Shown here: positions 12,806 through 53,737 of the stretch, in pieces | Position numbering within the stretch: position 1 is the first letter of the stretch | Layout of the letters: the number at the start of each line of letters is the position of its first letter | Origin: Negaprion brevirostris | Taxonomy: Eukaryota | Length of the DNA: 64,000 nt | NCBI GenBank assembly: GCA_030324005.1 | Contig: JARDVH010000097.1 | Location: 61,369,278-61,433,277 of the forward strand | Direction of reading: 5' to 3' | Notes under the pieces: generated by a model | Told to the model about the DNA's origin: nothing | The model's database searches: none | Seen by the model: the letters and a program-made list of their open reading frames with translations, nothing else | Translations under genes and position numbers: made by a program

Positions 12806-13000
12806 AGCCAATCGGAACCGCCGGAAGGAAGCCTCTCGCCTGAGTGTCGCGGTGGGAAGGTGTCAATCACCCAGCGGGTAGCCAATCAGCGGGAGCCTCT
12901 GGCTGAACTTCCTCCTCTTTTTTTTGTGTGTGGCGAGCGAGCGAGCGCGGGGGGAGAGCGCGGCGAGGCGGCCGAGGTAAACACTGGCTATGTGAGGAGG
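12806..13000 (+). promoter_or_regulatory. Candidate POU3F3 proximal promoter (CpG-rich, two CCAAT boxes, TALE-type and forkhead motifs)
   Basis: AGCCAATCG (CCAAT 12808-12812), AGCCAATCAG (CCAAT 12882-12886), TGTCAATCA 12861-12869 (reverse complement TGATTGACA, PBX-MEIS/PREP-type) and GTAAACA 12977-12983. GC/CpG-rich and about 300-470 bp upstream of the ATG. The TSS itself is not visible. Confidence 0.65.
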
Positions 13001-13275: not shown

Positions 13276-13521
13276 ATGGCGACAGCGACGTCCAATCCCT
13301 ACATGGCCAGCAATAGTATCCTGTCCTCCAACTCTATCGTGCACAGTGATTCAGGCGGCATGCAGCAGGCGACCACGTACCGAGATCCCTCGAAAATGGT
13401 GCAGAGCGACTTCATGCAGGGGGCCATCGCCAGCAACGGCCACATGCTCAGCCATGCACACCAGTGGGTGACGGCGCTGCCGCACACCGATGCGGGCTCT
13501 CCCTGGTCCTCGGCCATGGCC
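13276..13521 (+). CDS. POU3F3: POU class 3 homeobox 3 (Brn-1), N-terminal fragment ending at a 100-N gap
   Basis: Strong Kozak context (aagccATGG). Translates [82 protein letters not shown], matching the POU3F3 N-terminal motifs [26 protein letters not shown] and [15 protein letters not shown]. Confidence 0.93.
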
Positions 13522-13621
13522 NNNNNNNNNNNNNNNNNNNNNNNNNNNNNNNNNNNNNNNNNNNNNNNNNNNNNNNNNNNNNNNNNNNNNNNNNNNNNNN
13601 NNNNNNNNNNNNNNNNNNNNN

Positions 13622-14683
13622 TTTTTTGCACCCGCAGCTGTGACTAATCTGTCTCTGGCTTCTCCTCACACAGAGCTGAGTGTACTCCAATCCCACAGCA
13701 CTATTGTGCTGCCTGATACCAGCACCTTGGCCGAAACTCATAGAATGAATGCCCTGCTTTCCCCAGCATCCACCGGGCCCTTAGTCAAACACCATCCCCA
13801 GCATCGTACCCCACAACCCCCAGTCGAACCCCCCGGTCCATTGCCCCACACATTTGTGTTCCTAACCCTTCCCGCTACTTGGACCCAGGTGCCAGTGTTT
13901 ACTCAGGGAACAGATAGGAGTCAGGTTTGAGTGGCACCAGGGGCAGGATCCCAGTGTGCCTTACAGCGAGTCGTCATCATCCTCCAGCCTTCACCAAATA
14001 CTCGCTAACAGTACCAGCCCAGACCCATTAACCAGTTGTGATGTTTCTCAAAGTCAGGTGGGGTGCGGGAGGTGGGCTGAGAGAGGGTGGGAAAGGGGAA
14101 GGGACGTCTGGATTGAGGGGCCAGCTTTGGGTTGTGGGAGAGCGTTTGGGGGAGGTGGCAGCTGCAGTGGCTCCTGGGGTATCGTGGAAGGGTGTTAGGA
14201 GCAGACCCCACACTGCATGGCACCAGCTAGGTTAAGCAGGCTGCTATTAGGGTTTCCCTTGCAGCCCTGCCTTGCCGGATGCGAGCCATCACCGCCTGCC
14301 CTCTATCGCCCAGCTCCTCTTATGGCAAGTAGTCCACTTCTGCCTGCTGAGTCTGTCCAAAATCAAATTTGATGTAAAGGCCTGCCTGGTCATACAAGGC
14401 ATCTGTGACCTGGCGAACACATCTGTGGACTGAGGCCAACAAGATTCCACAAAGGTTGCTATGGGTGCCTGAAATGACCTGTTGCATAGAAGTTAAGTGC
14501 CGCCATCACCTTAACTTCCCCTGGGAGTGGGTGGCTGTCCCTGCCCTGAGGTGTCAGGTATGCGGGCTCCTCACACAAGTGCCATGACACATGCCCTCAG
14601 ATGACCTCCTGCTCTGATATTGCTTAGCCTCTGCATCCTCCTTCTCCTGGCCAGCCTTTTGGGAGACTGCTCCCTCACTTCAT
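13622..14683 (-). mobile_element. PIF/Harbinger transposon relic (internally deleted HARBI1-like transposase), probably mis-assembled into the POU3F3 locus
   Basis: Minus strand about 14540-14340 reads HPLPGEVKVMAALNFYATG/(frameshift)SFQAP..NLCGILLASVHRCVRQVTDALYDQAGLYIKF, like the HARBI1-family motif AALGFYTSGSFQ..GDAIGISQASMSRCVANVTEAL....FIRF. It then jumps to a C-terminus-like RIRQGRAARETLIAACLT* (stop at 14227-14229). No DDE core is seen. Assignment of 13622-14226 to the element is inferred from contiguity. Confidence 0.75.
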
Positions 14684-14711
14684 GGCCATGGCCGGCAGCC
14701 CCCTGGGTCAA

Positions 14712-14746
<35 letters not shown>

Positions 14747-14881
14747 GCAACAGGACGTCAAGCCGTCGGTGCAGGTGGTGGGCCGGGACGAGCTGCACAC
14801 GGGCGCCGCTCCCCTGCACCATCACCGCCCGCCTCACCTGCCGCCCCACCAGCCGTCACACGGCGGCCACCCGGCCGCCTG
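14684..14881 (+). CDS. POU3F3: POU3F3 middle fragment (polyQ and His/Pro-rich region)
   Basis: Begins with ggccatggcc, the same 10 nt that end the first fragment (13512-13521). Continues AMAGSPLG-Q15-DVKPSVQVVGRDELHTGAAPLHHHRPPHLPPHQPSHGGHPAA, resembling POU3F3 MAGSP...DVK...GRDDLH.G..LHHR.PPHL...GHP. Ends at a 10-N gap. Confidence 0.88.
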
Positions 14882-14891
14882 NNNNNNNNNN

Positions 14892-15162
14892 GGCCATGGC
14901 CGGCAGCCCCCTGCCCTCCTTCCTGAGGGCCTGCCACTGTTTGCTCCTGGAGTGGCCTCCCCTACACCCTCCTCCTCCTGAGCCGCCTCCATGATGGTCA
15001 GTTCCAAGTCAATAAGACTGAGCTGCACGGTGGAGGTTGGAGACAGAGAGATCGATAGATACATGCCATTGCTTGTATTTACCCCATCATCTATCCCCTG
15101 CCACTCCCCCCACCGCACCCACCCCCCCCACCAATCCCCCTGTCACCCCCTCCCCCCCGTTC
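14892..15162 (-). mobile_element. Continuation (5' part) of the same Harbinger-like relic
   Basis: Starts with the same 22-mer as 14684-14705 and joins seamlessly to 14683 if the POU3F3 piece is removed. The minus strand gives an acidic low-complexity peptide (LELTIMEAAQEEEG). Bounded by N-gaps on both sides. Confidence 0.55.
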
Positions 15163-15262
15163 NNNNNNNNNNNNNNNNNNNNNNNNNNNNNNNNNNNNNN
15201 NNNNNNNNNNNNNNNNNNNNNNNNNNNNNNNNNNNNNNNNNNNNNNNNNNNNNNNNNNNNNN

Positions 15263-15949
15263 CAGCCCGGCTTCACGGTGAACGGCATGCTGAGCCAGGC
15301 GGGCGCGCAGAGCCTACACCCGGGCTTGAGGGACACGCCGGAGCTGGTGGACCACGGGCAGCAGCACCACAGCCACGAGCACTCGGACGAGGACACGCCG
15401 ACCTCGGACGACCTGGAGCAGTTCGCCAAGCAGTTCAAGCAGAGGAGGATCAAGCTGGGCTTCACCCAGGCCGACGTGGGCTTGGCGCTGGGCACCCTGT
15501 ACGGCAACGTCTTCTCCCAGACCACCATCTGCCGCTTCGAGGCGTTGCAGCTGAGCTTCAAGAACATGTGCAAGCTCAAGCCGCTGCTGAACAAGTGGCT
15601 GGAGGAGGCCGACTCGTCAACCGGCAGCCCCACCAGCATCGACAAGATCGCGGCGCAGGGCAGGAAGCGAAAGAAGCGCACCTCCATCGAGGTGAGCGTC
15701 AAAGGAGCGCTGGAGAGCCACTTCTTGAAATGTCCCAAGCCCTCGGCGCAGGAGATCGCTTCCCTGGCGGACAGCCTGCAGTTAGAGAAAGAAGTGGTCC
15801 GAGTTTGGTTCTGCAATCGGAGGCAGAAGGAGAAACGCATGACGCCGCCGGGAGGGGTGCAGCAGACGGACGATGTGTACTCACAGGTCGGCAATGTAAA
15901 CGCCGACACACCACCCTCTCACCACGGACTACAAACCGCCGTACAGTGA
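15263..15949 (+). CDS. POU3F3: POU3F3 C-terminal fragment with POU-specific domain and POU homeodomain
   Basis: [11 protein letters not shown]...[38 protein letters not shown]...[21 protein letters not shown]...[20 protein letters not shown]. The tail [26 protein letters not shown] is POU3F3-type rather than POU3F1/2/4-type. Stop TGA at 15947-15949. Confidence 0.96.
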
Positions 15950-52146: not shown

Positions 52147-52638
52147 CCCCGCTTCCACCCTTCCCCCCCACAGTAGCCATTAACTCCGGCATCCCCTTCT
52201 TGTTGGACTGCTCCAGGCCCACTATCACAACTGCATGAAACCTAGCCCCATAAACCTCCCACTGGGGCCTGCCCTTTGGCACAAGTTGGCAGTGGCAGAG
52301 TACTGCCTGGCCATGTCCCATCCCCCTTCTTCCACTCCCCCAGGAGCTATACTTACTGTTACATGCCTGAGGAGACCCCCACATCAGGTTCATGTCGTGC
52401 TTTGAAGATTTGGAAAGGAGCCAAGATGCATGGCAGGGGGTGGCGTTTAATGATATTAAATGCATGCAAAGCAGATTCGCGCCCATAATAGATGCCACCC
52501 TGATGATGTCACTGGCGAGGGGCAAGGAGCCGGGAAGATTTGAAGTTGCATTCTGGCCAATGAGAACTGTGAGTTCTGGATCTCGAATCTTTGCCAGTAA
52601 CCTCACAGATGGCAAACGCAGGTAGAAGATTCCGCCCC
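52147..52638. mobile_element. Right portion of a probable non-autonomous Harbinger-type element (left end lost in gap)
   Basis: GC-richer block ending in agaagattccgccc, whose reverse complement GGGCGGAATCTT resembles the TIR of the MITE at 42989. Confidence 0.5.
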
Positions 52639-52668
52639 TAGTAAAAAAAACTGAAGCCCCTTCTTTAA

Positions 52669-52973
52669 GGATGGCATGGTGGCACATGGTTAGCACCACT
52701 GTCTGACAGTGCTAGGGACCCAGGTTCAATTCTAGTCTTGGTCACTGTCTTTGCACATTCTCCCCATGTCTGCGTGAGTTTCCTCCGGGTGCTGCACTTT
52801 CCCCCCACAGTCAAAAGATGTGTGGGTTAGGCTGATTAGCCATGCCAAATTAACCCTAGCATCAGGGGAATTAGCAATATAAATACATGAGACTGGTGGG
52901 ATTGTGGTCGGCACAGACTCGATGGGCCAAATGGCCTCCTTATACACTGTTGGGATGCTATGAAGATTCTATG
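52669..52973 (+). mobile_element. HE1-type V-SINE (tail type A)
   Basis: ggcatggtggcacatggttagcaccact...ggttcaattct, V core, and tail gactcgatgggccaaatggcctccttatacactgttgggatgctatgaagattctatg. Confidence 0.88.
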
Positions 52974-53737
52974 AAAATACAGCCTGAAAGATGTTGATCT
53001 AAATTAATACATTCAAACAAATGCAAGAGTGTTGCTTTTATATATATTAGTAATTTTGTCATTAATGACTTTGCTTGCCTTCTCAAGGACAAAACTTCCC
53101 AGTTTTAAGTTACTCAAGAAAGTTTATTTTCTAATTAATCTAATTGTCATGTGTAAAATAGATTTATTTTGCATAATTAATTAGAAAATTATCCTTAATA
53201 ACATTGCAGTTATAATTTTGTGTTGTGTCATGGATTGTAGTTTTGCGTTAAGAAAGTCTACTTGTAATTTAAGTCAATTTACATACGGAAATTGAGGGAA
53301 AATTAGCATTTATTATTTATATTGGGTCTCAGGATGACAAGATTTATAAACATGGGTCTTATGTTTCTGAGCCGTCTTTTGAGATTTAAATTAATATGAT
53401 TTCCATAAGGAAATTAGCTTGAATTAGGACAATTACTTGCTGTCACATGCCCTTTTTTAATAGAACAATTGCGTCTTTCTAGCGTTGTGTAAGGTGGGAT
53501 CTGTGGGATTTGAGTCATTTAGCCAGGCAGTACCCTGTCACTGCCAATTTGTGCCAAAGGGCAGGCCCCAGTTTCATGCAGTTGTGATAGATGTATGGGA
53601 TATGAGTTATTAACACAAATCGAGGCAAGTTCATATTAATGATATTGATACCAAAGCAATTGGTAGTTTTTCTCAATCACCAGCTTCATCTTTCCACACA
53701 ACCAGAGTGGAAGTGGCAAACACATAAATAAAGTAAG

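Follow-up and report, generated by a model that had tools for sequence, protein, structure and literature searches.

An apparent interleaving of POU3F3 with a Harbinger-type transposon relic is probably an assembly error at a shared 22-nucleotide word

The window, a 64,000-nt stretch of genomic DNA, carries the brain-development gene POU3F3 as three coding pieces, among which two parts of a Harbinger-type element and three runs of N are set (Table 1). Our reference was XP_043547679.1 (P0001), a POU3F3-like protein of 394 residues from Chiloscyllium plagiosum, to which the pieces align at residues 1–82, 80–144 and 167–394, in order and free of stop codons. Piece 1 (13276–13521) is 82 whole codons long, is identical to the reference at 81/82 residues and is single-copy in the assembly. 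Piece 2 encodes GSPLG, polyglutamine and a histidine/proline-rich part. Piece 3, identical at 227/228 residues, matches the profiles of the POU-specific domain (PF00157, E = 3e-39, 133 bits) and the homeodomain (PF00046, E = 1e-20, 74 bits); Pfam searches with pieces 1 and 2 returned no family. Both domains of a class III POU protein are present, together with N-terminal and linker sequence specific to the POU3F3 orthologue, as the identities in pieces 1 and 3 attest.

Table 1. Features of the POU3F3 locus, in window coordinates
Feature	Position	Strand	Remark
POU3F3 coding piece 1	13276..13521	+	Codons 1–82; last 10 nt inside the shared word
100-N placeholder gap	13522..13621		
Decayed Harbinger-type element, left part	13622..14683	-	Internal segment, no terminus
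Internal-deletion join	14329..14349		About 540 nt gone, DDE_Tnp_4 core included
Shared 22-mer, copy 1	14684..14705	+	Crossover point from transposon to POU3F3
POU3F3 coding piece 2	14694..14881	+	P0001 residues 83–144 plus 2 nt
10-N gap	14882..14891		
Shared 22-mer, copy 2	14892..14913	+	Heads the right transposon part
Harbinger-type element (same copy), right part	14914..15162	-	No terminus
100-N placeholder gap	15163..15262		Missing 22 POU3F3 codons would belong before 15263
POU3F3 coding piece 3	15263..15949	+	P0001 residues 167–394, stop included

With 99% identity in pieces 1 and 3, the same order of parts, a POU-specific domain and a homeodomain, the gene resembles chondrichthyan POU3F3 (Brn-1), and this near identity to shark proteins indicates a genome of shark type. 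It differs by the absence of 22 residues from the assembly: the codons for P0001 residues 145–166 (64 nt after the 2 nt at 14880–14881) are missing between 14881 and 15263, a loss that the original prediction did not list. A search for them on other contigs returned two paralogues only (5 of 5 candidates scored), and this short query also missed the window's own partial match. The polyglutamine consists of 16 uninterrupted Q, in contrast to the mixture of Q and P in several sharks, and residue 11 is Ala, where 13/13 related proteins have Pro; two other changes (AA ahead of the missing part and the A in AGAQS) are common to Callorhinchus. These 13 cartilaginous-fish proteins of the P0001 cluster, of which 11 are named as factor 3, one as factor 4-like and one by a gene id only, are all unbroken across the residues of the shared word (13/13), as predicted annotation products from which exon structure is not visible. 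Human POU3F3 is intronless according to a passage of PMC8302217, and three further class III POU genes elsewhere in the present genome are each a single open frame. One of these paralogues (L026, G000:C193) has an in-frame 24-N gap within its POU-specific domain, so that another class III gene is touched by a gap. Upstream of the POU3F3 start (12806–12900), directly after a 104-N gap, are two CCAAT-containing motifs (AGCCAATC at 12806 and 12880).

The two foreign parts belong to one decayed copy of a repeated family. The left part matches other family copies at about 66–85% identity and the right part at 68–91%, both in pieces, and the right part lies directly after the left part in those copies. 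At least 58 matches were listed for the left part (40 of 363 candidates scored) and at least 41 for the right (40 of 143 scored). Minus-strand transposase remnants occupy 14338–14581 in two frames, the reading being frameshifted (best E = 8e-9), and frames from seven of the ten best DDE_Tnp_4 loci match the same interval. Family copy L054 is collinear with the block and has a DDE_Tnp_4 frame (E = 5e-34); the deletion join maps to its positions 1457 and 1999, the DDE domain being at 1501–1947. This loss of the whole DDE core near 14345 was a further feature that the earlier reading of the sequence did not list.

Family homology continues for at least 300 nt beyond both ends of the block, which indicates that contig ends have cut the block out of the interior of an element. 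No terminal inverted repeats were found between the block ends, and since the block is an internal segment their absence does not count against a Harbinger element. Inverted repeats in eight longer family loci gave no clear element termini, and Pfam searches with two opposite-strand frames of family copies returned no family. One of 24 matches to the Myb-like profile PF13873 lies 2.9 kb from family copy L017, on the strand opposite the transposase (E = 5e-4, over the cut-off), and no Myb/SANT-like frame was seen in the window. PIF/Harbinger elements are characterized, in a passage of PMC9179366, by two frames, terminal repeats of 25–50 bp and a 3-bp target duplication. The likeness here consists of the DDE_Tnp_4 frame in family copies and perhaps the one nearby Myb_DNA-bind_5 match; the window copy itself has no DDE core, is frameshifted and represents an inner part of an element whose ends and target duplication lie outside the window. 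Judged by these frames, the family of the block fits PIF/Harbinger.

We found neither a second identical copy nor a donor flank: the best other match to the left part was 74% over the full query (40 of 363 candidates scored), and that to the right part 80% over most of the query (40 of 143 scored). Exact patterns taken from the block ends each gave one match in the assembly, with no donor in the 464 kb around the locus.

The transposon parts and the gene meet at a 22-nt word that is identical in its two copies and cannot be extended on either side; its first 10 nt are also the end of piece 1. In the 2.69-Gb assembly the word has two exact matches, both at this locus (a control pattern gave none), and still only two when up to two mismatches are allowed. 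By chance, such a direct pair of 22 nt would occur about 2e-7 times in an interval of 1752 nt, so that the pair is not a local coincidence. The word contains a 10-nt palindrome, three GGC motifs and an AG at 14697.

Other copies of the family have their own version of this word. When the two halves are placed on other copies, the left one overlaps the beginning of the right one by exactly 22 nt in 14 of 19. When only the flanks outside the word were aligned, in 28 copies made up of the 19 and 9 best loci of the left- and right-part searches (a usable flank being absent in six), exactly 22 nt lay between them in 15/28 and 19–23 nt in 22/28. The intervening 22 nt of those 15 copies are on average identical to the word at 16.3/22 positions, and at best at 19. 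By these alignments and the unbroken orthologous proteins the word is evidently native to both parents, the gene and the transposon copy. About 0.36 exact 22-mers are expected to be shared between a 1185-nt gene and the genome under uniform composition; the chance of obtaining this particular word from the family profile across 5248 candidate loci is only about 0.02. The oddest detail is that word positions 7–8 (14690–14691) match POU3F3, versus 0/15 and 1/15 of the family copies. This is likely to be chance plus selection, because only an exact copy can produce the error, although a tiny conversion tract could also have left such a trace. The gene-like letters at 14690–14691 are present in a transposon context in public sequencing run X1, and record 24 of run X5 aligns through them and ends at 14693.

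The arrangement originally predicted from the letters was borne out in each of its parts. The exact 22-mer is present at 14684–14705 and at 14892–14913, with its first 10 nt closing piece 1 at 13512–13521. The claim that the sequence without 14706–14913 is Harbinger-like and continuous agrees with the adjacency of the flanks in other family copies, and joining 13521 to 14694 restores the POU3F3 frame, 82 whole codons being followed by GSPLGQ, which is read in frame from 14694. Two gaps of exactly 100 N (13522–13621 and 15163–15262) enclose the block, with a 10-N gap (14882–14891) inside.

Such gaps are common in the neighbourhood. The 464 kb around the locus (G000:C97:61169278-61633277) hold 115 gaps, of which 39 measure exactly 100 N and another 20 exactly 10 N, and the intervening pieces have a median length of 2.4 kb, with 22/114 shorter than 1 kb. 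Flanks of the 100-N gaps overlap exactly, end to end, by 6–29 nt in 7/39 cases versus 0/1482 mismatched control pairs, and reach a local alignment score of at least 15 in 9/39 versus 2/1482. These overlaps indicate that 100 N is a placeholder and that pieces often end with a short overlap to their true neighbour; the 10-nt overlap of pieces 1 and 2 (13512–13521) is of the same kind. At several 100-N gaps (61319272, 61335400 and 61585722 among them) 24–71 nt are repeated on the two sides, and short false tandem duplications are therefore to be expected throughout the assembly. A duplicate signature general to 10-N gaps was considered and rejected, as an upstream duplicate of at least 15 nt accompanies only 1 of 20 nearby 10-N gaps, the one described here.

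Runs of 100 N are used by various scaffolding tools and archive conventions, and some assemblers write a fixed 10-N gap. RagTag, for example, a reference-guided tool, inserts 100 Ns (a passage of PMC10047940). The present assembly resembles the output of placeholder-gap scaffolding of this type in having sub-kilobase pieces ordered on a 107-Mb scaffold, gaps of exactly 100 N and some overlapping flanks; the comparison is by gap style.

We then compared 13440–14724 with public sequencing data, using four runs (X1, X2, X5 and X9) of 24, all in the form of Logan contigs. Such contigs repeat no 31-mer and omit singletons (as a section of PMC12424806 describes), so that a 22-nt word cannot merge paths there. 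Records of all four runs cross the deletion join without a gap. X1 record 8 (659 nt, depth 7.5) shows no difference from the window over 657 nt (14049–14705), and its last two letters do not align to 14706 onward. X2 record 16 matches 14235–14705 with 17 differences, and the 25 letters beyond do not align. An assembly with longer words thus takes a different path at the join in both records, for 2 and 25 letters only, each short of the 31 letters beyond the join that a bridge requires. That the X1 and X2 contigs leave the window path at 14705 for letters unlike POU3F3 is a strong hint that the assembled join is wrong, and the word does belong to the transposon copy. X1 is possibly the source sample, in which case it represents a re-assembly rather than a second individual; if it comes from another animal, the sequenced one may still have an allele of its own.

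The same copy, deletion included, is carried by records of X2, X5 and X9 with about 3–4% difference (22/687 letters in X9, 17/471 in X2 and 21/496 in X5). The presence of the copy in runs diverged to this extent indicates an old and shared relic. Gene piece 1 and X5 record 24 break off at one and the same letter of the word, which for the record is 14693. Palindromes and GGC are two triggers of sequence-specific sequencing error (in the account given in part of PMC3141275), and our guess is that the palindrome and GGC motifs of the word are tied to this shared breakpoint. X9 has the same organism label as X1, yet differs from the window at 22/687 letters where X1 differs at 0/657, and has most of its variants in common with X2 and X5; the label may cover two species.

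Several blanks in these data were not counted as evidence, some records having been filtered out. None of the 24 runs listed is of RNA, which speaks neither for nor against the join. Positions 13440–13521 are uncovered in the four runs, and no 13521–14694 joint appears among the 15 of 72 joints listed. None of the 996 aligned records crosses the ends of the compared stretch. The X1 depth of 3.75 in the last bin equals 7.5 × 19/38, which leaves no other X1 cover on 14706–14724. Records of X2, X9 and X5 that reach 184, 244 and 437 letters to the left of 13622, off the gene piece, were also set aside, given that the gap has no measured size and that the element itself extends further to the left.

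Three in-frame pieces of POU3F3 interleaved with two halves of one old transposon copy are, in our view, best explained as an assembly error at the shared 22-letter word (probability about 0.89). An artefact of some kind, as opposed to a real feature, is very likely, and what the locus presents is likely to be an assembly error to correct, not a broken gene. The error would start from a word native to gene and transposon copy alike. Read cover would have been thin over the GC-rich, palindromic and GGC-rich part of the gene; piece 1 would have dead-ended 10 nt into the word, and a further 64 nt would never have been assembled. In a graph step using short words (of about 21–23 nt), the word could then have been entered only from the transposon and left through the gene. 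Read pairs from the left half of the transposon would have drawn in its true continuation behind a 10-N gap, with the word repeated, and the resulting chimeric scaffold of 1541 nt would have been set between pieces 1 and 3 with 100-N placeholders, presumably because it carries piece 2. The prediction for the genome itself is a POU3F3 gene of about 394 codons, intact and in one exon, with the transposon relic lying uninterrupted at another place.

Chimeric joins at small k have been described for iterative SPAdes graphs (in part of PMC6736328). The likeness to that case is that two unrelated sequences have a short word in common, that one way in and one way out are thin or missing, and that the two ways left over become condensed into a chimera; the case in PMC6736328 concerns transcripts, whereas here the sequence is genomic and the displaced transposon half is re-attached behind a 10-N gap. 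For the present assembly the chimera step is what we infer. The original prediction of a POU3F3/Harbinger chimera at the 22-mer is supported by family alignments, orthologous proteins and the re-assembled contigs of public runs. Its crossing of two loci at small k is kept, but its gap filler is the less apt step: the block touches neither gene flank and has placeholder gaps on both sides, so that a misjoin within a separate 1.5-kb scaffold would fit better than extension from a gap edge.

An artefact could also have arisen before assembly, if the template switched at the 22-nt homology during amplification and the assembler accepted the chimeric library molecule at low cover. The low contig depth in the run identical to the window (7.5) is in keeping with this, as are the 10-nt palindrome and three GGC motifs of the word, patterns tied to sequencing trouble in the same part of PMC3141275. 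Against this, the fixed 10-N gap is followed at once by the word's first letter, with which the right transposon part begins; such a boundary is graph-like, and X1 record 8 goes past 14705 without gene letters. We regard a library chimera as unlikely.

Real biology is less likely still, and we think it very improbable that the animal carries either a POU3F3 allele recombined with a Harbinger copy or a transposon-interrupted, spliced POU3F3. The first of these two would be a rearrangement private to the sequenced animal, in which the transposon locus and POU3F3 had recombined through their 22 nt of homology. The assembled joins (transposon-left to gene-middle, gene-left to transposon-right) are indeed those of a reciprocal exchange, and the word has two gene-like letters that are rare in the family. 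Nevertheless, 22 nt is short for homologous exchange, one scaffold carries the gene pieces undamaged and in their native order, and X1, identical over 657 nt, continues with other letters and has no fork end, which bears on the matter if X1 is that animal. Such a rearrangement would have only a slight chance of being correct. The least credible reading is an old Harbinger insertion that disrupted POU3F3 or is spliced out as new introns: the unsized gaps could hide element ends or splice donors and the word has an AG at 14697, but a single insertion cannot put piece 2 between halves that adjoin each other in other copies, the duplication spans a word of 22 nt and not a 3-nt target site (cf. the passage of PMC9179366), family homology runs beyond both block ends, the copy is common to runs about 3–4% diverged while 13/13 related proteins are unbroken, and intact gene pieces conflict with insertion and intron gain alike. 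That the pieces are in order and stop-free would likewise argue against a gene that a decayed element interrupted long ago. A search of open papers found none on a transposon insertion in shark POU3F3.

As biology, the misjoin most likely has no consequence, the evidence pointing to an intact POU3F3. For this conserved single-exon regulator, automatic annotation of the assembly would probably produce spurious introns, a pseudogene or an apparent gene loss. The case is a caution that chromosome-scale short-read assemblies with placeholder gaps can hide foreign blocks in GC-rich genes. Were the join true, Brn-1, a near-invariant brain regulator of vertebrates, would have undergone a natural disruption of a rare kind.

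Harbinger elements are lacking in the elephant shark, and other cartilaginous fish need testing, according to a passage of PMC9179366. The present genome carries them in number: a genome-wide search with PF13359 (DDE_Tnp_4) gave 5248 first-look candidates, and all 150 that were scored were over the cut-off. Several DDE_Tnp_4 loci lie in open frames of 360–680 codons (L047, L049–L053 and L055). Elsewhere in the window, 52222–53590 has inverted arms at 52222–52241/53571–53590 (20 nt, 100%) and 52261–52311/53522–53572 (51 nt, 94%), which enclose about 1.37 kb and look like the terminal inverted repeats of a non-autonomous DNA transposon.
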